Shown piece after piece: positions 13,731 through 59,205 of a stretch of DNA of 64,000 nt. Location of the stretch: assembly GCA_963724775.1 (NCBI GenBank), contig CAVRWB010000016.1, forward strand, positions 28,815 through 92,814. Reading direction: 5' to 3'. Made by a program: the position numbers and the translations under genes. The notes beneath the pieces are model-generated. The model was not told the origin of the DNA. It made no database searches and saw only the letters and a list, made by a program, of their open reading frames with translations. Numbering within the stretch: the stretch's first letter is position 1; every line of letters begins with the position of its first letter. Source of the DNA: an uncultured Acidobacteriota bacterium (GTDB lineage: Bacteria; Acidobacteriota; Vicinamibacteria; Vicinamibacterales; Fen-181).

Positions 13731-16700
13731 CTATTCGCGGGGCGGCGCGGCCTGGAAGCCGCCGGGGCGGCGGAGGAAGCCGGCCTCGAGCAGGAAGGGC
13801 GCCATCGGGTGATCCGCCGCTGACCGGCCGTCGATCTCCGCAACGAGCATTCCGTCGCGGTCGCTGCCGCCCGTCGCCAGCCGATACAGTGTCTGCGCAA
13901 CCTCGCGCCCGGTGACGCTCCGCGCCGGCTCGTCCTCGGGCAGGAACGTCAGGAACTGCCGGTCCGCGCGCCCGACGTACGCCGCCAGCATGCCGTTGAC
14001 GATGATGACGCCGGCGCCGACCGAGCGGGTGGGGCCGCGGCCGGACGTGATGGACGAGGCGTGGGGCAGAGCTTCCGCCTCCGCGCGAAGCGCTTCGGCG
14101 CGACCTCGCCGTAGCCTTGGCGAAGGCGGGCCAGCTTTGCCTTCAGGTCTCGGCGACCTGGAAGTCGGCGCGACACCCTGTTCGGCCGACATGGAGGTCG
14201 GCGCGCTGCTTCGCGCCGCCTCGCCCGGCCATCTGAGAATCGCCCCATACGGATTGGCCGGATCCGTCGCCGCCAGGTAGACGGTCTGCGGCGTCTCCGG
14301 TTCGTCGCGTACCGAGCGCAAGAGATCCACGGCCGAGGGGAGCGCGAACTGCGTCGCTCCCAGGCCGCCCACGAAGTAGCCGCGGCGGATCCGCCCCGCC
14401 TCCTCCATCGCCTTCAGCACGTCATACACCGTGCTGAAGCCGCCGGGCAGGTTCTCCACCGCGATTGTCTCCCGCGTGACGATGCCGTGGCGCGTGAGGA
14501 GCTGCGAGGCGACGGCCGCCGCCCACTCGGTGGGGGAGGGATGCGTCCCGACGCGCGCTTCCACGAGGCTCCATCGTCCCTCCGCGGTCGCGGGCGTCAG
14601 GCGGCGCGACCGGAACGGCTGCGTTCGGTCGTGGCGCCGCGAGCGTTTCACTGGCGGCTGCGTGAAGGCGCGCAGCGGGTGGAACGTGTCGTTGGTGACC
14701 AGCCCTCGCCACACCAGGTCCCACAGCGTGTCCACCGTCTCGCGCGGGTAGCCGCCCCCGGCCGCCTGGTGGACGGCGGCGAAGAACGACGCACCCTCGC
14801 GGCGCAGGTGCTGCACGATTCGGGTGGCGCGATCGTCGAGTTCTCCCGCGGCTGCCCGCGGCGGCAGCAGCTTCGCCAGGTGATCGGCCAGGTAGACGGC
14901 GATGCGCCCGTCCCGGTCGCCAAGCGGCTCCACGCCAACCCACGCGATCTCGCCAGCGCTGGTGAGCACGTCCAGGTCGCCCGGCCGGTAGCCGTCGAGG
15001 CGCGACGGCAGGATCTCGCGCTCGAGAAGCGACGCCGGCAGCGGCGCGCCCTGGAGCTGCTCGATGGCATCGAGCAGCGCGTCGAGACCGGATCGTCGGA
15101 CGCCGAGGCCATGCCAGGTCGTCGCGAGGCGGCCCAGCGCAGCCGCGCTCACCGGTTCCACTTCGTGCCGCAGCTTCGCCAGCGAGCGCTGGCGGATCTG
15201 CGCGCAGCACGTCCGCCTCGCACCACTCCCGCCCCACCCGCCCGGGCGTGAACGCGCCCTGCAGCACGCGTCCGCGCGCCGCGAGTTGCGCGAGGGCGCC
15301 AGCGACGGCTCTCGGGGGCAGTCCCAGGCGGGCGGCGACGGCCTCGGTGGGGAACGGCCCGTGCGTCCGCGCGTAGCGCAAGACGAGATCGCCGAGCGGG
15401 ATCGGCAAGCGGTTCGAGGAGCGCATCCGGGAGGCCGAGCGGCAGCGGGGCGCCCAGCGCATCGCGGTACCTGGCGGCATCTTCCACGGCGATGAACCGA
15501 GGCGAACCCGCCACCGGCACCTCGATCGCGCGCCTGTCGGCGACGAGCTCGCGAATCGAGCGTGCGACAATCCCGCTCTCGGAACGCGCGCGAATCTCTT
15601 CCGAATCCAGGTCGCCCAGGCGCAGCAGCATGTCGTGGAGTGCGTCGCGGCTGCGAGCCCGGTAGCGGGGCTCGATCCGCTGCAGCTGCTGTTCCACCTC
15701 GTCGATCACCGCGGGATCCAGCAGCTCCCGCAGTTCCATGTCGCCGAGGAGGTCCTTCAGCTGCGACTGGTCCACCAGCAACGCCTGCGCCCGCCGCTCC
15801 GCGAGCGGCGCGTCGCCGTCGTAGATGAAGTTGGCGGTGTAGGCGAAGAGCAGCGACGAGGCGAACGGCGACGGGGCCTCGGTGTTGATCGTCACCGTTC
15901 GAATCGACCGGCTGCCGACGCGGCCGAGCAGGTCGACGAGCGCCGCCACGTCGAATTGATCCCGAAGGCACTCGCGGTAGGTCTCGAGCAGGGCCGGGAA
16001 CGAGCCGAACCGCGACGCGACGGCCAGCAGGTCGGATGCGCGCTTGCGCTGCTGCCAGAGCGGCGTGCGTGCGCCCGGGCGGCGCCGGGGCAGCAGCAGG
16101 GCGCGGGCGGCCACCTCCCGGAACCGCGCGGCGAACAGCGCGGTGCCACCGAGCTGCCGGAGGAGGAGACGCTCGACCTCCTCGGCAGGCGGCACCAGCA
16201 GCGCGGCGTCCGGCGGCTCGTCGGTGTCCGGGAACCTCACGACAAAGCCATCGTCGGACCACATCGTCTCGACCTCGATGTCGCGCTGCTCCCGGATGCG
16301 GGCCTCCGCGACCATCGCCCACGGTGCCAGGACCTGGCTGCCGTAAGGCGCGAGGACACACACTCGCCAGTCGCCGAGCTCGTCGCGATAGCGCTCGATG
16401 ACGAGCGTCCGATCATCGGGGACCGCCTGGGTGGCCCGCTCCTGGTCGGACAGGTACTGCAGCAGGTTCTCCGCCGCGGTGCGGTCGAGGTCGTGATCCT
16501 TGATCAGCCTGGCGAGCGCTGCGCCGCGCGGCATCCCGCGCAGCTCGCGCACCAGGCGCCCGATCGCCATGCCGAGTTCCAACGGCCGGCCCGGCCGGTC
16601 GCCGTGCCAGAAGGGCATCTTCCCGGGTTCGCCGGGTGCCGGGGACACCGCCACCCGGTCGTGCGTGATCTCCTCGATGCGCCACGTGGACGCGCCGAGC

Positions 16701-18458
16701 ACGAACGTCTCGCCGACCCGCGACTCGAAGACCATCTCCTCGTCCAGCTCGCCCACGCGCGCCGCGCCCTTGGGCGCACCGGCGAGGAACACGCCGTAGA
16801 GACCGCGGTCGGGAATGGTGCCCGCGTTGGCGATGGCCACGCGCCCGGCGCCCTGCCGCGCGGTCAGCGTCCCGCCGATCCGGTCCCAGGTGAGGCGAGG
16901 CCGCAGTTCCGCGAACTCGTCCGACGGGTAACGCCCGGACAGCATGTCGAGGACGCCCTCGAAGATGCCGCGCGAGAGGCTGGCATAGGGCGCGGCGCAG
17001 CGCACGGTGGCGAGGAGGTCGTCCACGCGCCACGGATCGGTCGCGACCGTGGCCACCACCTGCTGCGCGAGCACGTCGAGCGGGTTGCGCGGGTAGCGCG
17101 TCGCCTCGACGAGCCCCTCGTGCATGGCACGGGTGACGGCGGCGCAGGCGACCAGGTCGCCGCGGAATTTCGGGAAGACGACGCCCTCGCTGACCGCGTT
17201 CACCTGGTGGCTGGCGCGGCCGATTCGCTGCATGCCGCTCGCGACCGACGGGGGCGCTTCGATCTGGATGACGAGATCGATGGCGCCCATGTCGATCCCG
17301 AGTTCCAGCGACGAGGTGGCGACGAGCGCCGGGATTCGTCCCGCCTTCAGCGCGTCCTCGATCTCGACGCGTTGCTCGCGCGCCAGCGAGCCGTGGTGCG
17401 CCCGCGCGATCGTCTCGCCCGCCAGCTCGTTCAGGGATGCCGGCCAGGCGCTCCGCGAGGCGCCGGCTGTTCGCGAAGAGCAGCGTGCTCCGGTGAGCGC
17501 GAATCAGGTCGAGCAGGCGCGGGTGGATGCTCGACCAGATCGACGGCGCGGCGGCACCCTGCGCGGCCGGTCCGCTTGGGATCTCGATCGGCTTGGCCAG
17601 CTTCGCCAGGTCCTCGACCGGCACCTCCACCTTCAGCGCCAGCCGCTTGGGCTGCCGTGCGTCGATGACGGCGACGGGCCGGTACTCGATGGCTGGCGCG
17701 TCGGCGGAGAACTCGTCGTGCAGCTCGCCACGGAGGTCGGGCGCGCCCTGGGGTTTCCGCTTGGAGGTGTGGCGCGGACCTTCCGGCTCCTTCTTGACCG
17801 CTCCGCCGAGGAACCGCGCGACTTCGTCGAGCGGCCGCTGCGTGGCAGACAGGCCGATGCGCTGAAGCGTTCGCGGGCAGACGGCCTGCAGCCGCTCGAG
17901 CGACAGCGCGAGATGCGCGCCGCGCTTGGTGGGCACCAGCGCGTGGATCTCGTCCACGATGACCGTCTCGACCGAGCGAAGCACCTCGCGGGCCCGGGAC
18001 GAGAGCAGGAGGTAGAGCGACTCGGGAGTCGTGATGAGGATGTCGGCCGGCTCGCGCAAAAACCGCGCGCGTTCGGCGGACGGCGTGTCGCCCGTGCGGA
18101 CCGAGACGGCGGGTGGCGTGAACGACTCGCCCCGCGTTTGCGCGAGATTGGCGATGCCTGCGATGGGGGATCGCAGGTTCCGCTCGACGTCCACCGCGAG
18201 CGCCTTCAGCGGCGACACGTAGAGGACCCGGCACCGCGCGGAGCGCTCGGGCAGCGGTGAGAACATCACCCGGTTGACCGCCCACAGGAAGGCCGCGAGC
18301 GTCTTCCCGCTGCCGGTCGGCGACAGGATGAGCGTGGACTCCCCCCGCGCAATCGCCGGCCAGCCGAGCGCCTGCGGGGTCGTGGGCTCGCCGAACGAGG
18401 CGGCAAACCACTGCGCCACGGCGGGGTGGAACAGGCTCAGCGGGGACGGACGGGGCAT
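13731..18458 (-). CDS. lhr: Lhr-type large ATP-dependent helicase (DEAD/DEAH + Lhr C-terminal domains), at least 3-4 apparent frameshifts
   Basis: N-terminal LILSPTGSGKTLAAFL (motif I) and VIVDEIHAL (motif II). The middle contains MGAIDLVIQIEAPPSVASGMQRIGRASH (motifs V/VI). The winged-helix and Lhr C-terminal domains are spread over the 16413, 15149, 14422 and 13731 frames; one shift is near 17445 (LAERLAG|LNELAGE). Confidence 0.8.
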
Positions 18459-18474
18459 GGGGAATTCTATGATG

Positions 18475-18570
18475 GGATTGACGATTGACGATTGACGAGT
18501 GGCGATTGACGAGTGTGACGGCGACCGTCCCGAATTCGTCAATCATCAGTCGGCAATCGTCATTTGCCGA
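18475..18570. repeat. (GATTGACGA)n-type heptamer/nonamer tandem repeat plus a related TCGTCAATC...GGCAATCGTCATTTGCC segment between the lhr start and the upstream gene
   Basis: gattgacgattgacgattgacgagtggcgattgacgagtgtgacgg. Confidence 0.6.
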
Positions 18571-18971
18571 TCTGCTGATCCCCCGCACTCCGTACACGTC
18601 CCGTCCTCGAACATCCGTTCCGGCGCCGTGGGCCGGCCGCACTGCACGCAGGGCGTGTAGGTGGCGCGGCGCGAATCGCGGGCAGCGCGGATGAGGGCGT
18701 TGAGGCTGGCGAGGGCGTGAATCTCCGGCATGCGGCGCCATTGGACGCTGCCGAACAGGATCGGCCGGACGGACAGGTCGTTGGGTCCGTCCCACTCGAC
18801 GGCGTATTCCGACACCGAGGCCATCGAGCGCGTGAGCCGAACGACGACTTCGCCCGGGTCGCCGCCGACGAGGACCACGGACCCGTCGCGTACTGGCTCC
18901 TCGACAACCGGCTGCGGCAGCTCGTGCCTCACCGAGGTCAGGAGCGCTTCCCACTCGAGCCTGTCGGCCAT
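18546..18971 (-). CDS. Hypothetical protein with C-terminal CxxC...CxxC zinc-ribbon, immediately upstream of lhr
   Basis: ORF with the C-terminus TPCVQCGRPTAPERMFEDGTCTECGG. No recognisable family. Confidence 0.35.
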   Translation of the reverse strand: MADRLEWEALLTSVRHELPQPVVEEPVRDGSVVLVGGDPGEVVVRLTRSMASVSEYAVEWDGPNDLSVRPILFGSVQWRRMPEIHALASLNALIRAARDSRRATYTPCVQCGRPTAPERMFEDGTCTECGGSADRQMTIAD

Positions 18972-18984
18972 GTCGGAATTCTAG

Positions 18985-19067
<83 letters not shown>

Positions 19068-19095
19068 GGGCAAGCTGGCGACCTTTCTTGACCGT

Positions 19096-19800
19096 TTGGC
19101 TCCAAGTAGGCGATTATTCCGGGCCATGCCGATTGAGGTCTCCCGCTTCACCGCCGTCTTGATGGACCAGGTGCAGCTTGCCGCGCTCGCCTTCATGGCG
19201 GTCGTCTACGTCGTCAAGGTCCGGTGGATCCTCGGTTTCCGTGCCAGCGTCGAGCGGACGCCCGCGCGCGGCAGCCACGCGAAGGGGATCGGCTATGCCT
19301 ACGCCACCCTGGCCATGCCGTGGGATGTCCCCAGCACCCGGGTGCACTGGTTCCGCTGGGTGGAGTTCGTCGTCTTCCACGTGGCGGTGGCCGCGGCCAT
19401 CGTCCTCACCTTCGTCATGCCCTACTGGCCGGGCGCGGTCGGCGGGCCGGTGACCGTCGCCGCCCTGCAAACGCTCTTCGCTCTCGGTGCCGCGGTCGCC
19501 GTATCGCGCCTGGTCCGCCGGTTCACACGACCGGAGATGAGGCTGATCACCACGCCCGACGATCTCTTTTCGCTCGTCATGCTCGCCGCGTGGCTCGCCG
19601 CCGGCGTTCTCGCCGCCCCGCAGCGCAGCGAGGCCGCGCTCGTCGCATTCTTCGGGCTGACGGCGTTCTTCCTCGTCTACGTGCCCTTCTCGAAGATCTC
19701 GCACTACATCTACTACCCGTTCATCCGTTATTACATCGGCAAGCACTTCGGCCATCGAGGCTCGTACCCGCCATCCCGCGCGGCGCGCCAGGCCTCATGA
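19096..19800 (+). CDS. NarI-like di-heme membrane subunit (HdrE/DsrM family)
   Basis: About 5 predicted TM helices and a size of about 230 aa. His pairs sit in TM2 (HWFRWVEFVVFH) and in the last helix (SHYIYYPFIRYYIGKHFGH). It lies directly upstream of a CCG-domain Fe-S protein. Confidence 0.5.
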   Translation: MAPSRRLFRAMPIEVSRFTAVLMDQVQLAALAFMAVVYVVKVRWILGFRASVERTPARGSHAKGIGYAYATLAMPWDVPSTRVHWFRWVEFVVFHVAVAAAIVLTFVMPYWPGAVGGPVTVAALQTLFALGAAVAVSRLVRRFTRPEMRLITTPDDLFSLVMLAAWLAAGVLAAPQRSEAALVAFFGLTAFFLVYVPFSKISHYIYYPFIRYYIGKHFGHRGSYPPSRAARQAS

Positions 19801-19846
19801 GAGCGGCCATTCTCATTCGCGCCCTCGCTTCCAGGACAGGACGACC

Positions 19847-21235
19847 GTGAGCGACAACGATTCGAAAACCGGCGAAGCCAAGGTGCGCGAGTTCGTCGAC
19901 GGGTTCCACCGCAAGCTGACGCGCCAGGCGGTGCTGTCGTTCGCCAGCTGCGTGCACTGCGGCCTCTGCACCGACTCGTGCCACTACTACCTCGCGACCG
20001 GCGATCCCGAGATGGCGCCGGCCTACAAGGCCGACCAGGTGCGGAAGCTGTTCAAGGCGGAAGTGGACTGGCTGGGCCGGATCGCGCCCTGGTGGGTGGG
20101 CGGACGCAAGGTGTCCGACGAGGCGCAGCTCCACGCCCTCAAGGACGTCGTCTTCGGCTCCTGCACGATGTGCCGCCGCTGCACCTTCTCCTGCCCGTTC
20201 GGAGTGGACAAGGGCCTGATCATGCGCACGGCGCGCGGGTTGTTGACGGCGCAGGGCATCGCGCCGGCGGGCGTGCTGGCCGTGAACAAGGACCAGTGGG
20301 AAACCGGCAACCAGATGGCGGTCTCCCAGGAGGACTACCTCGAGACGCTCGACTGGCTGCAGGACGAACTGCGCGGCGAGACGGGCGACCCCGAGGCCGC
20401 GATCCCGATCGACAAGCCGGGCGCACGCATCGTGTACGTGGTGAACCCGCGCGAAATCAAGTACGCCCCGCTGTCGCTCCTCGCCGCCGCCAAGATCTTC
20501 CACGCGGTCGGCGAAGACTGGACGATGCCATCGGTCGGCTGGGACAACACGAGCTTCGGCCTCTTCTCGGGCGACGACGCCCTTGGCGCCCACATCGGCA
20601 AGCTGGCGTACGACCAGGCGATCAAGCTCGGCGTGCAGAAGATGGTCGTGTCCGAGTGCGGGCACGGCCTGCGCGCGACCAAGTGGGAAGCGCCGAACTG
20701 GGCGGGGATGGATCTCCCGTTCCCGATCGAAAGCTTCATCGAGACGATGGTGCAGTACGTCAACGAGGGCCGGCTGGTCCTCGACCGGTCGCGCAACCCC
20801 AAGCCGGTGACCTATCACGACCCGTGCAACGTCGCGCGGTCGGGCGGCATGACGGAGGAGCCGCGCTTCCTGCTCGAGAAGGCGTGCGCGGACTTCCGGG
20901 AGATGACGCCCAATCGGCAGGAGAACTTCTGCTGCACGGGCGGCGGCGGTGCGATGTCGATGTCCGAGTACACCCCGCGGCGGCTGCAGACGGCGAAGAT
21001 CAAGGCCGACCAGATCACGGCCACCGGCGCGCAGGCCGTCGCCACCGCCTGCCACAACTGCATCGACGGCCTGACGGACCTGATCAAGCACTACAAGCTC
21101 AACGTGCCGGTGCGGAACGTGTGCGAGTTCGTGGCAGATGCGATGGTGGTGGACGAGAAGGGCCGGACGAGAATCGGCTTAGGGCTTGGGGCTCAAGGCT
21201 CAGGGAAACCCGATCCGACATGGCCCTCACTCTGA
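19847..21235 (+). CDS. Fe-S oxidoreductase with two 4Fe-4S ferredoxin motifs and two CCG domains (HdrD/DsrK/GlpC/GlcF family)
   Basis: CVHCGLCTDSC and CTMCRRCTFSCP motifs. CCG-domain cysteines are present (ECGHG...DPCNV; FCCTGGGG...ACHNC). Confidence 0.7.
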   Translation: MSDNDSKTGEAKVREFVDGFHRKLTRQAVLSFASCVHCGLCTDSCHYYLATGDPEMAPAYKADQVRKLFKAEVDWLGRIAPWWVGGRKVSDEAQLHALKDVVFGSCTMCRRCTFSCPFGVDKGLIMRTARGLLTAQGIAPAGVLAVNKDQWETGNQMAVSQEDYLETLDWLQDELRGETGDPEAAIPIDKPGARIVYVVNPREIKYAPLSLLAAAKIFHAVGEDWTMPSVGWDNTSFGLFSGDDALGAHIGKLAYDQAIKLGVQKMVVSECGHGLRATKWEAPNWAGMDLPFPIESFIETMVQYVNEGRLVLDRSRNPKPVTYHDPCNVARSGGMTEEPRFLLEKACADFREMTPNRQENFCCTGGGGAMSMSEYTPRRLQTAKIKADQITATGAQAVATACHNCIDGLTDLIKHYKLNVPVRNVCEFVADAMVVDEKGRTRIGLGLGAQGSGKPDPTWPSL

Positions 21236-21252: not shown

Positions 21253-22047
21253 TTAAGCCTTCATTTCGAACCTCATACAGCACTGCCCGAAGTAGATCTC
21301 GTCGCCCGGCTGGAGCCTGACGCCGCGCGGGCTGCCGCTCGGCAGCTCGATCGTGCGGCCGTCGCGGAAAATGCGCGTGCCGTGCGAGCTGTGGTCGTCG
21401 AAGAGGCGGTACTCGCCCGAGGCCGAACGCAGGATGTGAGCCTGGGCGCGCGATACCGTCTCGTTCGCCCCTTCACCCCCCTCGGAGAAGACCACCTGGT
21501 TGCGCCGCGCCACCCGGCGCTCCTTGTCGAGCACCTCGGCGATTCGCCCGATGTTCGTCCGCGCTGCGGTCAGGGCGTAGGCCTTGCGCGTGGTCGCGCC
21601 TTTCACGACGACGAGTTGAGCGACAGCGCCAGGCTGCGGGTTGGCGACCGAGGCCGCCACCGTCGCCTGGTCGCCTGCAACCTGGAACACACGACCGGTC
21701 TCCCAGTCGGCTCCCTGCTTTCGGATGTACCGCAGCCGCACTTCGAGACCAGGGACCTTCGCGCAGCCCGCCTCGCGCAGCCGCTCCTCGATTGCCGTTC
21801 GCAGGCCGGCCTCACCGCCCAGGACCGCGTCGATGGCCGCGCGGCGCCTGGTGTTGCCGACGACGATGGCGACGTCGACGCGGGTGTAGGGAAAAACCGG
21901 CTTCGAGCGCGGGCCTGGCTGGGCCAGCTCCTCGACCTCGTCGAGAATCGCCCGCCGCATCTCGACCGGCTCCAGCGGCACGTCGCCGCGCGCGGCCAGC
22001 TTTTCAATCCGCTTCTCGAGCTTGGCAACCTTGTCGAAGATGCCCAT
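21253..22047 (-). CDS. FHA-domain protein (FhaA-like: N-terminal DUF3662-like region, C-terminal FHA)
   Basis: The C-terminal region (NIGR...SRAQAHI...GTRIFRDG) is FHA-like. The N-terminus MGIFDKVAKLEKRIE is FhaA-like. Confidence 0.6.
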   Translation of the reverse strand: MGIFDKVAKLEKRIEKLAARGDVPLEPVEMRRAILDEVEELAQPGPRSKPVFPYTRVDVAIVVGNTRRRAAIDAVLGGEAGLRTAIEERLREAGCAKVPGLEVRLRYIRKQGADWETGRVFQVAGDQATVAASVANPQPGAVAQLVVVKGATTRKAYALTAARTNIGRIAEVLDKERRVARRNQVVFSEGGEGANETVSRAQAHILRSASGEYRLFDDHSSHGTRIFRDGRTIELPSGSPRGVRLQPGDEIYFGQCCMRFEMKA

Positions 22048-22084
22048 AGCGATCTCACGAGGATATACCGCAGCAGGCGCAGAG

Positions 22085-22272
22085 ACAGGCGGGACGCCTG
22101 TCCTACGGCCTGCCGCACCGCTGAACAGGCGGCGAGACGCCTGTCCTACGGCCTACCGCACCGACAGGCGAGACGCCTGTCCTACGGCCTACGCCGACAG
22201 GCGACCCTGCCACCGACAGGCGAGACGCCTGTCCTACGGCCTGCCGCACCGACAGGCGGGACGCCTGTCCTA
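22085..22272. repeat. Five to six tandem copies of an about 37-bp unit GACAGGCGRGACGCCTGTCCTACGGCCTRCCGCACC, each with a 7-bp-stem hairpin; no unique spacers
   Basis: Read directly from the sequence. The last copy overlaps the stop codon of the SEDS-PBP gene. Confidence 0.75.
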
Positions 22273-25200
22273 CTGGACCAGACCCAGCTCGCGCGCGGTC
22301 GTGACGATGCGACCGGCGATCGGGGCCGCGACGCTCGCGCCGTAGCCGCCGTGCTCCACGATGACGGCAAACGCGATGCGCTGCCGGGCCGACCCGTACG
22401 GCGCGAAGCCCACGAACCACGAATGCGACGGCGCATCCTGCACTTCGGCGGTACCCGTCTTGCCGGCAATCGGCGGCTCGATCCCTTTCAGGCTGCGGCC
22501 CGTGCCCTCGAGCACCACCTCGCGCATCGCGCGCGCCAGCGTCTGCGCGTCGGCTGCCGACAGGATCGGCCGCGGCGGGTCCACCCGCTGGTTCGTCTCG
22601 TCGGCGACCCAGCGTCCCTGCGGCATCGCCCCCCCGCCGGCGATCGTGGCGGCGACTCGCGCCATCTTCAACGGCGATGCGAGGACCTGGCCCTGGCCGT
22701 ACGCGGCGAAGGGCAGCAGGTCGCGAACCGCGCGCGGGTTGGCCGGCGGCGCGAGCGGAATTTCGTAGAGATCGGCTGTCTCCTGCAGGGCCGGCGCGCC
22801 AATGTGCAGGCCCAGTTGGGCGAAGTAGGCGTTGCAGGAGACAACGAGGCCGCGTTCCAGGTCGATCGTGCCATGCGGCGTCCTGTCGGCCGGATCGTCG
22901 CGAATCGGCCGGCCCCACCCCGGGATCTTCTGCCCGACGCGCCCGTCCGGCAGCCGTTCGCACGTGAACGGCTGGTGCAGGAGCGCCGGGTTCTTGCGGA
23001 GCGCGGCGCTGGCCGTGACCAGCTTGAAGCTGGAGCCGGGTGGATACATGCCGTAGCGCGCGCGATCGAGCAGCGCCGCCTCGCGTTCTTCCGGCGAGGC
23101 GTTGCGCGAGGTCGGCTGCGAGCCTTCCGCGGCGGGCCACGGGTAGCTGACCGCCGCCAGGAGGTCGCCGTCGCCTGACAGCACGACCGCCGCCCCCTCC
23201 TTGCGCCCGGCCTGGTCGACTCCGCTTTTCACGATCTCGCCCAGCTTCAACTGCATCCGGACGTCGATCGAGAGGCGGACGTCGCGCGGCCGCGCGAGCA
23301 GCCGCTTCACCGACTCATCGTCCGGGTTGTACCGCTTGCGGAGGAGGGGGATCAGCTCGGTGAGATCCCGTCGAAGGACCCGGGTCTTCGCGCCGGTCCG
23401 CGCGTCCGGCACCTCGACCACCCTCGCGTGGTCGTCGTAACCGCGCAGCCGCGCGTCGCTGTCCCGCTCGACGAACGACGTGTTGCTTGCCGCCCAGTTG
23501 GCCTGCGTGCGGAAATCGCCGAGCAGATGGTACGTCAGGCCGCCGAAGGGGTAGCATCGCGCTCCGCCAGTCCCGCACGCTGGCGCAGGCGTGACGCCCA
23601 GCTTCGTCAGGTCCTCCGCGTGACCGGCGAGATCTGCCGGCCGGCTCGTGGCGAGGGGAATGCCGTTCCGGTCGAAGATCGTCCCTCGCTCGATCAGCCG
23701 TGCCACGGCGAGCAGCCGCGGGTTGTACTCGAAACGGCGCTCGCCGTCGGCCTGCACCGTCAGCGCCGGGGCGATGAGGGTCCGGTTGGGGTTGACCACC
23801 TGCACCATGGCCGCCCGGCCCAGCGCGGCGAGGAGCAGGACGGCCACGGCGCCGGCGAGCGCCAGCGCCGGGCGCTCGAACTCCGGCTTCGGGGCAGCAT
23901 CCTGCGCGCGCGCGCCGATCGCGAGGATCATCCCGATCGCGAACAGGTTGGCGATCATCGAGGAGCGGCCGTAGCTGAGAAACGGCGTCGCCACGCCGGT
24001 GAGCGGCATGAGGCCGAGCAGGCCGGCGGCGATCAGCGCGAGCTGCAGGACCAGTCCGAGGGTCAGGCCAAGCGCCAGGAAGAACGTGTAGTCGCCGGGC
24101 GCCCTCAGCGCGATGCGCAGGCAGCGCCAGGCGACGAGCCCGAACAGGACGACAACGGCCGCGATCCCCGCGAACCCCAGTTCCTCGCCGACCACCGCGA
24201 GGATCAGATCGGTGTGACCGGCCGGGATCAGCCGCGGATCGCCCAGGCCGAGCCCGGTGCCGGAGACCGCGCCAGCGGCGAGCGCCCAGAGCGCGTGCGC
24301 GACCTGATCGCCGCCGCGGACGACATTGTCCCAGGGCGACATCCACATCTGCACGCGCTGGACCACGGTATGCGGGAAGCCAAGCAGGTAGCCGGCCAGG
24401 AATCCGGAGACGAGCAGCCCCAGCCCGACGCCGACCATCGTCAGACGGCGCCTCGCAACGCCGTACATCGCGAGGAACACGCAGGCGAGCACCAGCGCGG
24501 GCCCGAGGTCCTTCTGCAGGAAGAAGAACACCAGGATGAGCGCCATCCCGACGAGGACCGGCAGCACGAAGTCCAGGCGCGGGACGTCGAACCCGAAGCG
24601 CGCGGCGCCGCCCAGGCGAGGCTCCTTGAGCGAGCGGAGCAGCTCCCAGCGGTTGGCGAAGTAGCCCGCGAGAAACAAGACGACCAGGACGCGTATGGCT
24701 TCGACCGGCTGCGCGCCGAGCAGGTTGACCTTGGCGTCGCTCGTGCCCGGCCCGCTGCCGAAGATGATCAACAGCACGGAGAGGCCGATGGCGCCGAGCA
24801 GCGGCACGTAGCTCAGGCGCCGCAGCTGCGAGCGTTGAAGATCGACCAGCCGCACGAGCATGAGCCCGATGAGGCCGACGACCACGCCTTGCGAGAAGCG
24901 CGGAAACAGCGCGGCGTCACGAAGGGGATCGCGCAGGCTGATCATCATCGCGAAACCGACGCCGCACAGCAGGTGGACAGCGGGCAGGAGCAGCGGATCC
25001 GACGAGAGCCGGCGCGCGCGAGCCGAGATCCAGGCGACGTAGAACGCCGCCACGAACAGCGCGCTCGCGAGGATGAGATCCGTGCGGAATGTTCGCCAGG
25101 CGCGCACGACGAGCGACGGCCGCAGCGCGCCGAGCTGCGACGGCGTCAGCAGCGGGACGGTGACAGTCGTGGAATCCGGCTTCAGCCGGATCTGACCGGC

Positions 25201-25647
25201 GGCATCGAGCTGCGCCCGCCGTCCGCCCAGCCGCTGCCGGAATGTGACCAGCCGTCGGTTCGCCTTCACGTCGGCGTCCGACACCGTGATGGCGCCCAGT
25301 GCGCCGACACTCGGGACGCGCCGCCGCAGATCGCCGCTGCCGTCGGGCGTCGTGAGCCAGGCGGTGATGCGGTCGGCCACGAAGCGGCGCTCGGCGGGGT
25401 CCGCGACGACGCCGTCGAGGACCGGCAGGAGCTGTTCCGCGCGATCGATCGTGTTGATGTCCAGGAGCGGCGTGCCGGCGGTGCTCGCGTTCGCGTCAGC
25501 CGCCTTCGCGCTGAACACCAGCCACACTCCCGCCAGCGACACGAGCGACGCGACGAGGAGCGCCGCGAGTTCGAGCGACGGGGAGCCGCTGCGCCGCCGG
25601 GTGGCGCGGACCGCACGTTCGGCCGCGGTGGTGTGGGTGATACGCAT
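22270..25647 (-). CDS. Natural fusion: SEDS family (RodA/FtsW) peptidoglycan polymerase and class B penicillin-binding protein (transpeptidase)
   Basis: Single uninterrupted 1125-aa ORF. The N-terminal half has about 10 TM helices with SEDS motifs (GHTDLILAVVGEELGFAG; PFLSYGRSS). Then comes a TM anchor and a PBP dimerisation plus transpeptidase domain (SSFK, SCN, KTGTAE). Confidence 0.75.
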   Translation of the reverse strand: MRITHTTAAERAVRATRRRSGSPSLELAALLVASLVSLAGVWLVFSAKAADANASTAGTPLLDINTIDRAEQLLPVLDGVVADPAERRFVADRITAWLTTPDGSGDLRRRVPSVGALGAITVSDADVKANRRLVTFRQRLGGRRAQLDAAGQIRLKPDSTTVTVPLLTPSQLGALRPSLVVRAWRTFRTDLILASALFVAAFYVAWISARARRLSSDPLLLPAVHLLCGVGFAMMISLRDPLRDAALFPRFSQGVVVGLIGLMLVRLVDLQRSQLRRLSYVPLLGAIGLSVLLIIFGSGPGTSDAKVNLLGAQPVEAIRVLVVLFLAGYFANRWELLRSLKEPRLGGAARFGFDVPRLDFVLPVLVGMALILVFFFLQKDLGPALVLACVFLAMYGVARRRLTMVGVGLGLLVSGFLAGYLLGFPHTVVQRVQMWMSPWDNVVRGGDQVAHALWALAAGAVSGTGLGLGDPRLIPAGHTDLILAVVGEELGFAGIAAVVVLFGLVAWRCLRIALRAPGDYTFFLALGLTLGLVLQLALIAAGLLGLMPLTGVATPFLSYGRSSMIANLFAIGMILAIGARAQDAAPKPEFERPALALAGAVAVLLLAALGRAAMVQVVNPNRTLIAPALTVQADGERRFEYNPRLLAVARLIERGTIFDRNGIPLATSRPADLAGHAEDLTKLGVTPAPACGTGGARCYPFGGLTYHLLGDFRTQANWAASNTSFVERDSDARLRGYDDHARVVEVPDARTGAKTRVLRRDLTELIPLLRKRYNPDDESVKRLLARPRDVRLSIDVRMQLKLGEIVKSGVDQAGRKEGAAVVLSGDGDLLAAVSYPWPAAEGSQPTSRNASPEEREAALLDRARYGMYPPGSSFKLVTASAALRKNPALLHQPFTCERLPDGRVGQKIPGWGRPIRDDPADRTPHGTIDLERGLVVSCNAYFAQLGLHIGAPALQETADLYEIPLAPPANPRAVRDLLPFAAYGQGQVLASPLKMARVAATIAGGGAMPQGRWVADETNQRVDPPRPILSAADAQTLARAMREVVLEGTGRSLKGIEPPIAGKTGTAEVQDAPSHSWFVGFAPYGSARQRIAFAVIVEHGGYGASVAAPIAGRIVTTARELGLVQ

Positions 25648-25735
25648 CGAATGTCCTGGGTCAATCCGGTAGGCAGGAGTGCAGTGGGTGCAAGCGGTGC
25701 AGAGAAGCGCCGGGCTACGACGTGCCTACTGTCTG

Positions 25736-27877
25736 CTACCCTGCTACCTCGTGGCACCACTGCCTGACAGCCCAGACTGCCACACTGCAGGCGAGACGCC
25801 CTGCCACGTGACTAGGCGAGACTTCTTCTCCATCTCCTGCGGCTGCGTTCCGCGCCAGTTGCTTGTCCACCTCGTCGAGGCGAGACTGGATCGCGCGCAC
25901 GCTCGCGCTCGCCTCGCCAAAGCCAATCGCTTTCTGATAGAGGTCGAGCGCCTGGCGGTAGTCGTCCGCCGCCTTCTGGAGGCACTCGCGTTCCTGATCG
26001 AGGCCGCGCACGGCCGTCGCCTCGCGGCGCCACCGGTCGGCGCGGTTGCGGTAGCCATCGGCGAGTTGGACCAGCTCGCGGTTCCCGGCCCGATACCCCC
26101 GTTGCTCGGCTTCTTTCAGCACCGCGATGGCCTTGTCGAGATCGTCGAGGCCGTAGATGTAGGTCCGGGCCAGGCCCAGGTACGGGTCGGGCCACCGGCT
26201 GTCCACCCGGCCGGCTTCCTCGAACTTGGCGACGGCGTCCCGGAACGCCTCCGTGGTCGAGAGCTTCTTTCGCTTGCGCGCCTCGCCGTCGATCCGCCGC
26301 AAATGACCCTCACAGTAGCGCAGGCGCGCGGCGGCCCCTCGGTCGCCGGGATCGAGGTTGAGGACATCCGTCAGCCAGGTGGCGGCATCGCGCCACTGCG
26401 CTTCGCGCACCGTCGGCGCGTCCTGCCGGTAGTCGGCGATGACCCGCTCCGACTGTGACATCAGCCGGTCCTTCATCGCGCCTTTCACGCCGACGAGCCC
26501 GATGCCGAGGAGGCTGCGGTGCGCCAGCCCCTGGTATTCGTCCCAGAGGCCCTGCATCGCCGAATTCTCGACGGTTGCGAGCCCGACGCGAATGCGGCGC
26601 GCCGCCGTCCACACGCTGACCTCGTTGACGATCAGGCCGATCACCGTCAGGAGGAGCAGGGCGGAGGCCCACCTTGCCGAGGCGCGGGCGCGAATCGGCG
26701 CGCGCGAACGCGGGCTGCTCGGTACAGCCGGAATCGGCGGAATCGGCACCGCGGCGCCTGCCGCCGCCAGCACCGTGCGGCGAGTCGCCTCGCTGTCGGC
26801 CTCCGCGGTCGGAGGGCCTGCATCCGTTCGCCTCGTGGCCTCGGCTTCGATCAGGACATCCGCCGCGGCCTCCGTCCGACGCGTCGCGTCGCCTGCGTCG
26901 ATCGCCGCGACGGCGACGCCGCCGCTCGCGCTGACGTCGCGGCCGCCCTGCACGGCGATCGCAACGGGGACGCCCGTTCGCCGGGTTTCGCCCTCGGGTT
27001 GCAGCGCCATCCATTCGGCGTCCGCCACCGTCGGCTCGCCGCGCCTCAGCGCCTGCAGGTCGTGCCGAATGAGGCCGGCATCCGCGTAACGGCGCGTGGG
27101 GCTGCCGGCCAGCATCTTGAGAATGATGCGTGCGAGTGCGGGTGGACAGCTCTCGGGCAGCGGAGCCGGCGGCTGCCGCGATCGGATGAGCGACTCGAGC
27201 GCCTGGCTCGTGTCGGCCTCGTACGGCACGGCGCCGGCGACCATCTCGTAGAGCAGGATGCCCACGGACCAGAAGTCGACGTGCGGATCGACCTCGCCCG
27301 TGTCGAGGCGCTCCGGCGAGAGGTAGCTGAGGCTCCCGAAGTCGTTGCGCGTGAGCTTCCGGCTGAGCGCGAGCCCCTTGGCGATCCCGAAGTCCAGCAC
27401 CTTCACATCGCCCGCGCGATTCAGGCGGACGTTCTTCGGCTTGATGTCGCCGTGGATGATCCCGCGGATGCGCCGGTCGTCGAGCGTCGCCTCGAACTGG
27501 TGGGCCTTCTCGAGGAAATCGCAGATCTCCACCGCCACCCGGGCAGCGTCCTCGGCGGCCATCGGCGCCTGCGCGATCCGCTCCGCCAGGTCCTCGCCGT
27601 CGACGTACTCCATGTCGATGTAGAAGTAGCCGGCGATCGTGCCGTAACCATGGACGCGCGGCACGTGCCCGTCCACCTCGCAAAACTGTTCCTGCAGGAG
27701 GGCGCCCCGCCGCTCGGCTTCGCAGATGTCCTTCGAATCGCGGTCCGGGCGGATCTCCACCAGCTTGAGCGCCACCTCGGCACCGCGCTCGGTGTCCGTC
27801 GCCAGGTAGACGTCGGCCATCCCGCCCCGCCCGAGGCGCCGAATCAGCCGGTACTTGCCGAAGTCACGATCGAGCAT
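25736..27877 (-). CDS. Ser/Thr protein kinase (PknB-like) with TM helix and an about 290-aa extracellular alpha-helical domain
   Basis: GRGGMADVY...ALK, HGDIKPKN, DFG and SPE kinase motifs. A linker carries 4 copies of (E/D)ATRRT, followed by a TM helix ALLLLTVIGLIV. Confidence 0.85.
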   Translation of the reverse strand: MLDRDFGKYRLIRRLGRGGMADVYLATDTERGAEVALKLVEIRPDRDSKDICEAERRGALLQEQFCEVDGHVPRVHGYGTIAGYFYIDMEYVDGEDLAERIAQAPMAAEDAARVAVEICDFLEKAHQFEATLDDRRIRGIIHGDIKPKNVRLNRAGDVKVLDFGIAKGLALSRKLTRNDFGSLSYLSPERLDTGEVDPHVDFWSVGILLYEMVAGAVPYEADTSQALESLIRSRQPPAPLPESCPPALARIILKMLAGSPTRRYADAGLIRHDLQALRRGEPTVADAEWMALQPEGETRRTGVPVAIAVQGGRDVSASGGVAVAAIDAGDATRRTEAAADVLIEAEATRRTDAGPPTAEADSEATRRTVLAAAGAAVPIPPIPAVPSSPRSRAPIRARASARWASALLLLTVIGLIVNEVSVWTAARRIRVGLATVENSAMQGLWDEYQGLAHRSLLGIGLVGVKGAMKDRLMSQSERVIADYRQDAPTVREAQWRDAATWLTDVLNLDPGDRGAAARLRYCEGHLRRIDGEARKRKKLSTTEAFRDAVAKFEEAGRVDSRWPDPYLGLARTYIYGLDDLDKAIAVLKEAEQRGYRAGNRELVQLADGYRNRADRWRREATAVRGLDQERECLQKAADDYRQALDLYQKAIGFGEASASVRAIQSRLDEVDKQLARNAAAGDGEEVSPSHVAGRLACSVAVWAVRQWCHEVAG

Positions 27878-27921
27878 GGGAAGAAGGGCTCAGGGCCTCA
27901 AGGCTTACGGCTTCCACACCT

Positions 27922-29619
27922 CTACTTCCGGCGCGGCGCAGGTGTCGCGCCGTGCGGCGGCGCCGGGAGGCCGATCACGTTGTCGCGCAGCAAGTCGGCC
28001 CTCTTGTCGGCGGCCAGGCCCCAGACCTGGTCCTCGGCGTTTCCCGCGATCACGTTGCCGAAGAACACGGCCGACGCGCCCTCCTGAAGAACGACGGCGG
28101 GCGGCAGACGAGGTCCGGTCGAGTCGGGCACCCGCACGCCGCCGGCGGGCGCCTTGCCGTTGCCGGTGATCACGTTGTGCAAGAGCCTGGGGAACGCCCT
28201 GGCGTCCACCAGCACGGCCACCTCTCGGTTGTCGTGCAGATAACTGCCGCGGAGGACCGCACGGGACCCTTCGCCGAAGACCACGGCGAACCGGTCGGCG
28301 CCGGCGATCTCGAGATCCTCGAGAACGGCTTCCCCGCTGCCCTCCGTACCGTCGCCCGCCATCACGGCTGCCGGGCTGTCAATCTTGAATCCCGCCAGCC
28401 GGCTGCCGTTCGTCACCCGCACGCCCGGGCCGGCCACTGGCGCCCCGGCGGCAAAGCGAAGGACGGCTTCCCGCGACCGCCGGGAGACGACGCTGACACC
28501 CGGCGGCACGACAATCGGCAAGTCGTACGCGCCGGGCTCCACCTCCACGATGTCGCCCGGCAACGCCCGCTCGAGGGCTTCGGGTATCGTCGCGAACTCG
28601 GCGTCGGGCTGCGGGCCGACGTGCCACGTCCTGGTCCAGCCGGCCGGGCGCGACACTCGGAGCAGCCAGTCCGGTGCCGCATCGGTCGTCAGCACGATCG
28701 CGGCCGCCGCGGACAGCCCGGCGAGCAGGCCGTAGGCGAGCATCGCCGGGCGCGAGACGAGCGCCTCTCGCACTTTGCGCGCCGCACCGGCCATCCGGGA
28801 CCGTCCACCTGCGCCACCGTCGGGAATGCCGGTGCGCAGCCGGCGTTTTGCGGCCTCCGCGAATCCCGGTCCTTCGACGACGACGACGGTGACGTTGTCC
28901 TTCCCGCCCGCCTGGTTCGCCGCCTCGATCAGCCGCTCCGCGGCGCGACCGGGATCGCCCGCGTGCTCCAGCAGGATGCGCGCAAGCCGCGCGGACGGGA
29001 CCATGTCACTCAGGCCGTCCGTGCACAGCAGCAGCGCGCTGTCCCCCTCGAACGGCTGGTCGATGAGCTCGATGAACCCCTCGTCTCCCGGCTCGTGCGG
29101 CTCGGATCCCACGTCGCGGTAGATCTCGTTGCGACGCGGGTGGTGCATCGCCTCGGTCTCGTCAATCTCTCCCTGGTCCTCGCGCTCGCCGACCGGCGAA
29201 TGGTCGTGCGTGACCTTCGCGAAGCCGCTTGCGGTGGACGCGTAGAGGCGCGTGTCGCCGACGTGCCCGACCGTCAGGCGTCCGTCGCGGACGAGCGCGA
29301 CCGTCAGCACGCAGGCCATTCCGTGCCACGCCGGCTCGCTCGCCCCGGCGCGCACGATCTCGTTGTTGGCCAGCGCGATCGCCTCGCGCACGCGGTCCCC
29401 GGGCTGGCCCGTCTCGCGCTCCAGCCGCGCCCGGATCATCGTCAAGGCCGTCTCGGCGGCCTTCTCGCCGGCCGCGTGGCCGCCGACGCCGTCGATGACC
29501 ATGAAGAAGCCCCGGGCGGCATCGCAGTGAAAACGGTCCTCGTTGTTCTCGCGTTGCAGGCCGGCATGGCTGGCGCCGGCCGCGGCGAGGGCGGGGCGGG
29601 TGAGGGCGGCGCTAGGCAT
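27922..29619 (-). CDS. PP2C-family Ser/Thr phosphatase fused to TM helix and extracellular parallel-beta-helix-like repeat domain
   Basis: N-terminal PP2C motifs (ENNEDRF, VIDGVGGHAAGE, DGLSD, GGKDNVTVVVV). A TM helix LAYGLLAGLSAAAAIVL follows. The C-terminal repeats (NVITGNG, GNVIAGNAED) resemble NosD / pectate-lyase beta-helix. Confidence 0.75.
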   Translation of the reverse strand: MPSAALTRPALAAAGASHAGLQRENNEDRFHCDAARGFFMVIDGVGGHAAGEKAAETALTMIRARLERETGQPGDRVREAIALANNEIVRAGASEPAWHGMACVLTVALVRDGRLTVGHVGDTRLYASTASGFAKVTHDHSPVGEREDQGEIDETEAMHHPRRNEIYRDVGSEPHEPGDEGFIELIDQPFEGDSALLLCTDGLSDMVPSARLARILLEHAGDPGRAAERLIEAANQAGGKDNVTVVVVEGPGFAEAAKRRLRTGIPDGGAGGRSRMAGAARKVREALVSRPAMLAYGLLAGLSAAAAIVLTTDAAPDWLLRVSRPAGWTRTWHVGPQPDAEFATIPEALERALPGDIVEVEPGAYDLPIVVPPGVSVVSRRSREAVLRFAAGAPVAGPGVRVTNGSRLAGFKIDSPAAVMAGDGTEGSGEAVLEDLEIAGADRFAVVFGEGSRAVLRGSYLHDNREVAVLVDARAFPRLLHNVITGNGKAPAGGVRVPDSTGPRLPPAVVLQEGASAVFFGNVIAGNAEDQVWGLAADKRADLLRDNVIGLPAPPHGATPAPRRK

Positions 29620-29712
29620 CGCGGGACAGGCTGAGGAAGACGAGGCCGCCGGCGGCCGCGAACAGCAAGGCCAGGTAGAGGAAGCGCAGCGAGTGCAGCC
29701 AGCTCATCGCGC
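29612..29712 (-). CDS. Candidate 31-aa hydrophobic peptide (MSWLHSLRFLYLALLFAAAGGLVFLSLSRDA) between the FHA and PP2C genes; its stop overlaps the PP2C start
   Basis: Found only by translating the sequence. One predicted TM helix; no other support. Confidence 0.2.
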
Positions 29713-30606
29713 GCCCCCCGCTTCGAAGTCGAGCACGATGACGTTGGCCAGGCCGATTCGCGCCCGCGCCGGCAGCGGCACTTCCACCCCCTTGTCGCGC
29801 TTGCGCCCTTCGACCACCTCGATGCTCGACGGCACGGCCTCGCCGTCCACCGTCGTGCCGAGGCTGCTGAGATCCTTGAGGAAGAACTGGCCCGTCGCCT
29901 CGTCGCGCCGCAGCCGCAGGTGCTCGCGCGACACGTCCGCGGAGGTGTCGAGCTTCACGTCCACCCAGTAGCCCACGCCGCCGCGCCCGACCACCAGCTG
30001 GTTCTTGGTGATGGCGATCTTCTGCGGCCCCCGACGATCTTCATACGCAAGGGTGCCGAAGATGGTTCCGCCCGAGGCTGGCGCGGGTGTCACGGGCCCG
30101 GTCGAGATCACCTGCTCGCGCGTGCTCGTCGACTCGCCCAGGCGCATCGTCGTGATGCGGCGCGTACGCGTGCCGTCGAACTCGGGCTGCTTCGGGAACG
30201 TCAGCTCCGAGGCGATCGCAATGTCGCCCGGCTGCATCTCGCCGTCGGCATCCGGCTCGAACCGGATGTCCCAGGGTTCCGGCGGGGGCTCGATCGGCAG
30301 CGGCCGGTCCTCGCCCCCGACGCCAGCCCTGAGCGAGGCCGCGACGCGGTCGAGTCGAAGGGGCCACTTGTTCGGCTTTGCCTTGCCGTTCCACTTCCGG
30401 ACCTCCTCGTCGAGCGCGCGCCGCGCCTGCTCGACGAGGAGCGGGAAGATGCCCTCCAGCCGCTGGTGATCGGCCGGGTGCAGGTAGACGAAGAAACGCG
30501 TCGGCGCGACGGTCGAGAACAGGAGCGGCTCGACGTTGCCGCGCATGGCGCGGACGATCTCGAGAATGATGTCGCGGCCGGTGGCCAGCTTGTCGGTGTC
30601 GTCCAT
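29704..30606 (-). CDS. FHA-domain protein (FhaA-like)
   Basis: C-terminal FHA domain (VVGRGG...SREHLRLRRD...GQFFLKDLSSLGTTVDGE). The N-terminal region resembles DUF3662. Confidence 0.7.
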   Translation of the reverse strand: MDDTDKLATGRDIILEIVRAMRGNVEPLLFSTVAPTRFFVYLHPADHQRLEGIFPLLVEQARRALDEEVRKWNGKAKPNKWPLRLDRVAASLRAGVGGEDRPLPIEPPPEPWDIRFEPDADGEMQPGDIAIASELTFPKQPEFDGTRTRRITTMRLGESTSTREQVISTGPVTPAPASGGTIFGTLAYEDRRGPQKIAITKNQLVVGRGGVGYWVDVKLDTSADVSREHLRLRRDEATGQFFLKDLSSLGTTVDGEAVPSSIEVVEGRKRDKGVEVPLPARARIGLANVIVLDFEAGGAR

Positions 30607-30810
30607 CGGGAGACTACGTTACCACCCTGCCACTTTCACGTGTAGCGCGAACGTTCCGTTCGGCCCCAAGCCGCGGGGCCGAGGGTCCACCGGTCTCCGC
30701 CCTTCGCGTGATGCAGAGCACCGCCAGCATCGCCAGGGGCAGGACCACGCATGCCAGCGTGACGAACGTCGCAACGAAGATCAGGAAGATCACGCTCTGC
30801 TCCCGTCCGC

Positions 30811-40073: not shown

Positions 40074-40124
40074 GCGGGCGCTTCCATCCGGCACACCTGT
40101 CGCAGGTACGGGCTCCAAGGCCAG

Positions 40125-45258: not shown

Positions 45259-45366
45259 GAACGAGTCCTTTCGAAGTCTATGGTCAGGGGGAATGGCGAC
45301 GTGCAGCCCGAGATGCTACTACCGGCACGCCCGCTACGCCAAGCGGAAGGGACGACATGACAGTTC

Positions 45367-59069: not shown

Positions 59070-59205
59070 CGTAGCACTGCCGTGACGGACTCGAAACCTC
59101 GACCGTTTGACCTTCGGACCGATCGTGTCTAGCATGCTGCTTCCCGGTTGCTCCTCGCGAGGCGAACGCGACGGGCGCGGGCCGCGGGCATCGAAAGGAC
59201 TTCTG

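Follow-up and report, generated by a model that had tools for sequence, protein, structure and literature searches.

A membrane redox pair of the DsrMK/HmcEF/TmcCB class in an uncultured acidobacterium: a candidate quinone-linked thiol/disulfide oxidoreductase

The window analysed here is the whole 64-kb stretch of contig CAVRWB010000016.1 from an uncultured Acidobacteriota bacterium. It contains two co-directional open reading frames (ORFs) on the + strand, at 19096-19800 and 19847-21235, the location given by the first-pass annotation of this DNA. They encode a membrane protein and an iron-sulfur (Fe-S) protein, called E and F after their best-matching families. E-F is probably (our rough estimate is 60%) a quinone-linked oxidoreductase of two subunits that acts on thiols/disulfides (or persulfides/trisulfides) and belongs to the DsrMK/HmcEF/TmcCB class. 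The first-pass annotation had described a membrane redox module of the HdrED/DsrMK type, and family models, motifs and folds bear this out.

E and F are real, intact and expressed genes under purifying selection. They are not chance ORFs, because their third-position G+C content (0.87-0.88, in a window of about 70% G+C) has the bias typical of real genes, their homologues are many (more than 3,300 proteins for F at an E-value ≤ 1e-10 and 538 for E at ≤ 1e-5), and the ratio of nonsynonymous to synonymous substitution rates (dN/dS) is low. Its values, taken against the closest relative at locus L081 (94-95% amino-acid identity), are 0.10 for E and 0.13 for F.

The iron-sulfur subunit

Pfam recognizes in F a dicluster ferredoxin domain (Fer4_8, residues 33-120) and a single CCG domain (residues 321-405). 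The invariance of its cysteines was read from an alignment of 14 F sequences, A1. The two ferredoxin motifs named by the first-pass annotation are present in full (C35-C45 and C106-C116; Table 1). Its second CCG domain is not: the first CCG-like half keeps the fold, as judged from Foldseek matches to HdrB and EtfD, and its cysteines are reduced to C271 alone. This residue lies in an xECGH motif that is found in 116 of the 120 closest homologues of F, and C271 and H273 align with C581 and H583 of EtfD.

DsrK, HmcF and TmcB have one CCG motif and a strictly conserved Cys in a T/G-ECGH motif, whereas HdrD and HdrB have two CCG motifs and HdrD has two noncubane clusters (Barbosa et al., PMC10861901). 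F has all three features of the former class: two CxxCxxCxxxC motifs, one complete C-terminal CCG motif, and the Cys of ECGH in place of the other CCG motif. The NCBIfam models point the same way. The best scores are those of HmcF (NF045711, 307 bits against a cut-off of 750), TmcB (NF045724, 303 against 735) and DsrK (NF045796, 247 against 400, over the full model length). They are followed by TfrB (59.5 against 385), LdhH (58 against 800), GlcF (38 against 333), two GlpC models (31 and 22 against 278 and 280) and LutB (15.5 against 445). All of these scores stay under the curated cut-offs, and F is therefore related to HmcF, TmcB and DsrK without being an equivalog of any. The HmcF, TmcB and DsrK cut-offs are likewise not reached by 10 representatives of related subgroups.

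Since the top models are HmcF, TmcB and DsrK, and since F has a single CCG motif with an invariant xECGH Cys, F is assigned by sequence to the DsrK/HmcF/TmcB class of CCG proteins and not to the HdrD type. HdrD identity was rejected because the first CCG motif is down to one Cys, against two complete motifs in HdrD. Clustering at 50% identity gave 215 clusters with an E-value ≤ 1e-30, and the F clade is essentially one of them. The E-F pair is a distinct clade leaning to HmcF/TmcB, a placement based on NCBIfam equivalog scores and a neighbour-joining tree of homologues.

The AlphaFold2 (AF2) model of F has a predicted local distance difference test score (pLDDT) of 78. Its best fold match in the PDB is the mycobacterial EtfD, 9ojn (TMq 0.69 over 474 columns), followed by LutA, which covers the CCG half only, and then HdrB.

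The membrane subunit and its haem

E has no Pfam match. The NCBIfam models HmcE (NF045716, 44.8 against a cut-off of 275, E-value 1e-11) and TmcC (NF045723, 39.9 against 240, E-value 3e-10) identify it as a homologue, not an equivalog, of HmcE/TmcC. Sequence and profile searches of the PDB with E gave weak NarI matches only (E-values 0.03-0.1). Some E homologues at about 50% identity carry PF02665, and the Joint Genome Institute labels many of them 'nitrate reductase gamma subunit'. The AF2 model (pLDDT 85) has five long helices and a C-terminal helix. For its nine best PDB matches Foldseek gives NarI chains and the EtfD membrane domain, with template-modelling scores of only about 0.48 and E-values of about 0.02. 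The positively charged loops and tail would fit the topology of NarI, with the N-terminus out and the C-terminus in.

The first-pass annotation had called this protein NarI-like and di-haem, and of these two descriptions only the first is supported. In alignments of 25 and 73 homologues two His alone are invariant, His85 and His193. HMMER aligns His193 with His205 in the NarI motif PFSRLIH. We take His56 and His205 of NarI to be the ligands of the proximal haem and His66 and His187 those of the distal haem. At the E positions that correspond to His66 and His187, none of the 25-73 homologues has a His. E therefore probably binds one haem, the proximal one, as only the equivalents of His56 and His205 are invariant. 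The same genome scan provided a control: the membrane partners at six loci of the DsrK-leaning outgroup (L070, L072, L073, L075, L077 and L080) keep all four His, as do those at L047, L052 and L055. The four-His pattern consists of H-x9-H in helix 2 and H-x17-H ending in PFSKxxH. A dihaem E was rejected on these grounds, the distal pair being missing in the homologues of E while the DsrM-type outgroup keeps four His.

A single haem has a precedent in EtfD. Its one b haem (His78, His241) lies about 7 Å from the nearest cluster, and menaquinone lies 4-5 Å from the haem (EtfD paper). The lack of a distal haem in EtfD has been read as menaquinone electron transfer without energetic coupling (preprint 10.64898/2026.08.18.745454). 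No usable statement on the haem content of HmcE/TmcC was found in the literature.

Relatives and their regulatory cassette

Proteins of about 580 aa that end in a receiver domain (PF00072) make up most of the close F homologues (60-86% identity). As read in A1, this domain has the usual acidic pair, the phospho-acceptor Asp, the Thr and the Lys. A scan with one genome per species gave 80 loci from Acidobacteriota, Thermoanaerobaculia, NC10, Myxococcota, Ignavibacteria, Gemmatimonadota, Planctomycetota, Elusimicrobia, Chloroflexota and others. The E gene lies immediately 5' of F in nearly all of them, which supports the formation of an E-F complex.

The receiver-type loci have regulatory genes as well. 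Directly 3' of F, 18 of 22 encode a two-PAS histidine kinase. An Rrf2 regulator is found close by in 12 of 23 and a stand-alone receiver protein in 18 of 28, and about 15 loci have a macro-domain gene ahead of E. The usual order is Rrf2, (macro domain), E, F::receiver, two-PAS histidine kinase and stand-alone receiver. It is found at L001, L003, L019, L021, L025, L028, L031, L034, L063, L066, L082, L084 and others. The kinase sequence from L082 has a C-x11-C-x2-C motif in each PAS domain.

The receiver domain and the Rrf2 genes of most relatives echo, by analogy, the hmc-rrf1-rrf2 arrangement, Rrf1 being a response regulator. In D. vulgaris the regulators rrf1 and rrf2 come after the hmc operon with its hmcF (PMC10924467). 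A description of a receiver-fused DsrK/HmcF-like family or of its cassette was not found in the literature searched. The receiver domain, the two-component/Rrf2 cassette and the DsrC links of the relatives are absent from the first-pass annotation.

Loss of the regulatory genes in the window lineage

The F gene of the window ends 18 nt before a convergent FHA gene and encodes no receiver domain. The receiver domain is also missing from the relatives P0001 (97% identical) and P0007 (78% identical). The window, P0001 and P0007 share one gene order: Lhr, a small ORF, E, F, a convergent ORF and FtsW-PBP. The convergent ORF is a weak FHA match in the window, and P0007 adds a kinase and a PP2C. In the neighbour-joining tree the window F nests among the receiver-bearing P0002-P0005 (83-86% identity), whose loci have the kinase and a divergent receiver gene. 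Judged from this tree, the receiver domain was lost secondarily in the window lineage, because F nests among receiver-bearing sequences whose loci keep the kinase and the receiver gene.

Searches of the window by tblastn with the kinase, Rrf2, receiver and DsrC proteins of the cassette found none of them. The sole kinase match is a weak generic ATPase-domain match within an unrelated CHASE kinase. As read from these comparisons, the Vicinamibacterales-like window lineage has lost the receiver domain, the kinase and Rrf2 and has kept the redox core. All cofactor ligands and Cys271 are retained in spite of the loss. The dN/dS values, the conserved gene order and the retained ligands support the view that the receiver-less E-F is still functional.

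DsrC-family genes among the relatives

The lead to a substrate comes from the relatives of the pair. A DsrC-like C-terminal domain is fused to F at L033 (PF04358 by Pfam) and at L043 and L047-L052 (by phmmer), where it takes the position that the receiver domain has elsewhere. Examples of the fused gene are L033:7947-9635, L043:7884-9593 and L047:4629-6299. An extra DsrC-like gene without the Cys lies just 3' at L047, L048 and L052.

Separate DsrC genes are also found. A canonical DsrC (…ACKxAGLPKPTGCV) is encoded directly 5' of E at L038. At L030, in a Terracidiphilus metagenome-assembled genome (MAG), DsrC lies 4.5 kb 3' of F, with DsrM and DsrK after it. Six loci from five phyla (L022, L023, L029, L034, L053 and L066) have an operon of dsrC-like, four-His dsrM and dsrK-like genes, which stands beside the cassette of macro domain, E and F::receiver. 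Its dsrC-like gene reads …FPCG…YRLAGLPRPxGC. Between operon and cassette there is a tandem-DsrC gene in five of the six loci, encoding a protein of 215-260 aa with two DsrC-like domains, and there are Rrf2 genes in two. In a Chloroflexota subgroup (48-50% identity) the flanking genes are instead like DsrO, DsrP and DsrJ, along with one DsrE-like gene and one for CbiA (DsrN-like), as assigned by reading the sequences and not by hidden Markov models.

Because DsrC-family genes recur beside or fused to the relatives, a thiol protein of the DsrC/TusE type is proposed as the best candidate partner and is at present the best lead. Of the substrates listed by the first-pass annotation, it is the thiol/disulfide to which these links and fusions point.

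Proposed function and mechanism

E would be a NarI-fold protein of five helices with a single b haem held by His85 and His193 near the cytoplasmic face. The conserved Arg128, Arg132 and Arg139 possibly bind the haem propionates, like Arg residues in EtfD, and the menaquinone site is probably beside the proximal haem, as in EtfD. F would dock on the cytoplasmic side of E. The predicted route of electrons connects the menaquinone pool, the proximal b haem, the two cubane [4Fe-4S] clusters, and the noncubane [4Fe-4S] cluster with Cys271 (and His273) to a sulfur-sulfur bond. The noncubane cluster (C327, C362, C363, C402 and C405) and Cys271 of SECGH would act jointly on this bond. The likely substrate is a Cys-bearing carrier of the DsrC/TusE family or another cytoplasmic thiol.

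As E probably lacks a distal haem, the module would be non-electrogenic. It would move no charge across the membrane and would link sulfur redox reactions of the cytoplasm with the quinone pool, no redox loop being involved. Typical disulfide potentials are, by our own estimate, lower than about -70 mV. With menaquinone given that value, the midpoint of menadiol (PMC10861901), thiol oxidation with reduction of menaquinone is therefore estimated to be the downhill direction.

The ancestral F would have borne its receiver domain within a two-component/Rrf2 cassette, both of which the window lineage then shed. A wider proposal is more tentative. E-F might be the redox core of an undescribed signalling/respiratory system of many phyla, which couples the menaquinone pool to the state of DsrC/TusE-type thiols. 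In Vicinamibacterales-like Acidobacteria it might have been stripped to a constitutive, non-electrogenic cytoplasmic thiol:menaquinone oxidoreductase, a counterpart of DsbB/VKOR, without a dissimilatory sulfur pathway.

Several observations weigh against an oxidoreductase of this kind. The window pair reaches none of the NCBIfam equivalog cut-offs of HmcF, TmcB, DsrK, HmcE and TmcC. The redox-active C-terminal Cys arm is missing from the DsrC domains that are fused to F in Dehalococcoidia, and such Cys-less domains may be docking or regulatory and not substrates. There is no DsrC-like gene in the window (tblastn E-value 0.33 or worse), and its ORFs, surveyed with Pfam, include no ETF, Dsr, Hdr, Glp, Glc or Lut partner. 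The module is mostly within a signalling cassette in relatives, and the role of the family may be mainly sensory. As to the haem, a distal ligand other than His may formally be present in E.

Comparison with known systems

The pairs HmcE/HmcF of the Desulfovibrio Hmc complex and TmcC/TmcB of the Tmc complex are the best-scoring families for both E and F. Like the window pair, they join a NarI-like membrane subunit to a cytoplasmic one with two ferredoxin motifs, a single CCG motif and the xECGH Cys (PMC10861901). Unlike Hmc and Tmc, the window pair has no periplasmic cytochrome c and no HmcB/C-type subunits. Its scores are far under the cut-offs (307/750, 303/735 and 45/275), its E keeps the proximal His pair alone, and its host is, as far as the window shows, not a sulfate reducer.

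DsrMKJOP is a menaquinol:DsrC-trisulfide oxidoreductase with a dihaem DsrM (PMC10861901). The window pair shares with DsrM/DsrK, the minimal module of this complex, the two-subunit logic, the single CCG motif and the conserved ECGH Cys, and its relatives are linked or fused to the DsrC family. DsrM, however, is dihaem, and DsrM-type proteins of the outgroup loci have four His, whereas E has two. The score of F is 247 against the DsrK cut-off of 400, and there is no dsrC or dsrAB in the window.

The nearest solved structure is the mycobacterial EtfD (Rv0338c and its MSMEG homologue, PDB 9ojn), which has a five-helix NarI-like domain with a single proximal b haem. EtfD is one fused chain, whereas E and F are encoded by two genes. 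The first CCG domain of EtfD has a linear [3Fe-4S] cluster bound by C503, C538, C581 and C584, and the clusters are shielded and non-catalytic (EtfD paper). F misses three of these four Cys and bears the DsrK-type catalytic signature, and no ETF genes are near.

The methanogen pair HdrE/HdrD also consists of a membrane cytochrome b and a ferredoxin/CCG protein that reduces a disulfide. HdrD differs from F in having two complete CCG motifs and two noncubane clusters, against one motif in F. HdrE has been modelled with proximal and distal haem sites (preprint 10.64898/2026.08.18.745454).

Alternative explanations

The strongest alternative, although an unlikely one, is that E-F is a redox sensor and not an enzyme, which would report the state of the quinone or thiol pool, here to unlinked regulatory partners. 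The kinase, Rrf2 and receiver genes that accompany the receiver-type relatives at the frequencies given above argue for it, and the D. vulgaris hmc operon is likewise trailed by rrf1 and rrf2. The separate four-His DsrM/DsrK-like operon of six loci is a possible catalytic paralogue, and its position beside the cassette keeps alive the view that the receiver-type E-F is a sensory paralogue of a neighbouring catalytic DsrMK. The F of the window, however, has neither a receiver nor any other output domain, and the window encodes no homologue of the cassette-type Rrf2 or receiver, only the weak ATPase-domain match in the CHASE kinase. Purifying selection with every cofactor ligand and the putative catalytic Cys intact is easier to explain by catalysis.

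Somewhat less likely again is a canonical DsrMK that works with DsrAB and DsrC encoded elsewhere, in dissimilatory sulfite reduction or in reverse-Dsr sulfur oxidation. The DsrK model does match F over its full length with 247 bits, the relatives are linked to DsrC genes, and the Terracidiphilus MAG has DsrC, DsrM and DsrK at a distance of 4.5 kb from E-F. Yet this score is under the DsrK cut-off, HmcF and TmcB score above DsrK, and the distal His pair of DsrM-type proteins is missing in E. The DsrC-DsrM-DsrK-like sets, where present, form a separate paralogue beside E-F. The first-pass annotation had already noted that no dsr or hdr genes adjoin the pair; none lies within the window, and no dsrC or dsrAB is linked to E-F in these 64 kb.

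A split, EtfD/EMO-like electron-transfer flavoprotein (ETF):menaquinone oxidoreductase, which would pass electrons of beta-oxidation into the quinone pool, is improbable. EtfD 9ojn is indeed the nearest solved structure both by sequence (E-value 1e-15) and by fold, EtfD is also mono-haem, and homologues of its linear-cluster motif are reported from Acidobacteriota in the EtfD paper. F, however, scores only 60 bits against EtfD, compared with about 300 bits for HmcF/TmcB. Of the four Cys for the linear [3Fe-4S] cluster only the equivalent of C581, C271, remains, and the xECGH Cys is the catalytic signature of the DsrK class (PMC10861901). No etfAB genes are found in the window or among the conserved neighbours in the 80 loci.

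A role as the Fe-S/CCG subunit of a dehydrogenase for glycolate, lactate or glycerol-3-phosphate (GlcF, LutA/B or GlpC type), substrates that the first-pass annotation had also listed, is very improbable and was rejected: F shares with these proteins the common CCG/ferredoxin superfamily, and LutA is its second-best fold match, in the CCG half only, but the GlcF, GlpC and LutB models give 15.5-38 bits against cut-offs of 278-445, no GlcDE, GlpAB or LutBC is encoded in the window or near the relatives, and there is no firm GlpC or LldF placement with the partner nearby.

Gene starts and features of the locus

The ATG at 19126 is the most likely start of E, rather than the TTG at 19096. It is preferred because most of the E homologues among the matches listed are 223 aa long, the length from this ATG, and because a conserved promoter-like site covers 19088-19117; the TTG was rejected for the same reasons. 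One such site was found upstream of E, against 0.1 expected from shuffles. It stops 8 nt short of the ATG, and a very short or absent leader would therefore be implied. The N-terminus of F agrees with that of P0001.

Table 1. Features of the E-F locus, with positions in the window
Feature	Position	Strand	Basis
Promoter-like TTGACC-18 nt-GATTAT	19088..19117	+	Consensus match; putative function; conserved in L081
Subunit E, 223 aa, NarI/HmcE-like putative membrane cytochrome b, five helices	19126..19800	+	NCBIfam, homologue lengths, AF2, Foldseek, dN/dS
His85 of E (His95 in the 19096 ORF), invariant, aligns with NarI His56	19378..19380	+	HMMER, alignments
His193 of E (His203 in the 19096 ORF), in invariant PFSKISH, aligns with NarI His205	19702..19704	+	HMMER, alignments
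Shine-Dalgarno-like AGGACAGGA, 5 nt 5' of the GTG start of F	19833..19841	+	Read from sequence
Subunit F, 462 aa, cytoplasmic Fe-S protein of the DsrK/HmcF/TmcB class, without C-terminal receiver domain	19847..21235	+	Pfam, NCBIfam, homologues, AF2, dN/dS
First CxxCxxCxxxC of F: C35, C38, C41, C45	19949..19981	+	Invariant in A1; predicted cubane [4Fe-4S] ligands
Second CxxCxxCxxxC of F: C106, C109, C112, C116	20162..20194	+	Invariant in A1; predicted cubane [4Fe-4S] ligands
SECGHG motif of F, S269-G274, remnant of first CCG motif	20651..20668	+	Invariant in A1; C271 putative catalytic Cys
Complete CCG motif of F, C327-x34-C362C363-x38-C402-x2-C405	20825..21061	+	Pfam; five Cys invariant; predicted noncubane [4Fe-4S] site

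The divergent intergenic region just 5' of the E promoter contains a tandem array of about 12 copies of the heptamer GCAGTGG (18987-19072), which also has a 21-nt period repeated four times. Only a short remnant of this array is present in L081. The divergent ORF beyond it (18546-18971, - strand) encodes 141 aa with a C-terminal zinc-ribbon-like motif, CxxC-x15-CxxC, and has no family match; L081 keeps a counterpart of 137 aa. A degenerate receiver domain was considered for this ORF and ruled out, and neither Pfam nor NCBIfam gave a family match.

Neighbouring genes

The search for partner subunits in the neighbourhood that the first-pass annotation had proposed found none within the window. 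Convergent with F, at 21253-30618 on the - strand, lies a cluster resembling the actinobacterial fhaA-pstP-rodA-pbpA-pknB set. It encodes an FHA protein, a 1125-aa FtsW/RodA-transpeptidase fusion, a Ser/Thr kinase with TPR, a PP2C phosphatase with a beta-helix, and an FhaA-like FHA protein. Its order is kept beside E-F in P0007.

The Lhr helicase gene (13734-18458, - strand) is spread over frames -3, -1, -2 and -3, against an intact Lhr of 1584 aa in L081; the identity to L081 is 99% in the middle segment and 81-85% in the flanks. Genes split by frameshifts are also found at 42810-45315, 38213-40294 and 56783-59213. They encode, respectively, an M28 peptidase, a pyruvate formate-lyase, with a PFL-like part and a Gly_radical part at 39663-40073, and a CHASE-HisKA / HATPase-REC hybrid kinase. 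The split genes, that of Lhr included, point more to indel errors of the assembly than to pseudogenes. Both E and F, by contrast, are intact. As the window contains a pyruvate formate-lyase, a strictly aerobic lifestyle is not to be assumed. Rfam and tRNA scans of the window gave no matches.

Significance

For HmcF/TmcB-type proteins DsrC has, to our knowledge, only been proposed as the physiological partner. The repeated fusion and adjacency of DsrC in the E-F clade is independent comparative evidence for a DsrC-type partner of these proteins. A DsrK-type catalytic site joined to a single-haem, probably non-coupled membrane anchor, and usually to a receiver domain in a kinase/Rrf2 cassette, is a combination that was not found described. 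The receiver/kinase/Rrf2 cassette and the DsrC fusions, both of which lie outside the window, are worth pursuit. The window copy belongs to a lineage that is common in soils and is naturally minimal, without the receiver domain or the regulators, and it would be a convenient construct for the study of the core function of the family.

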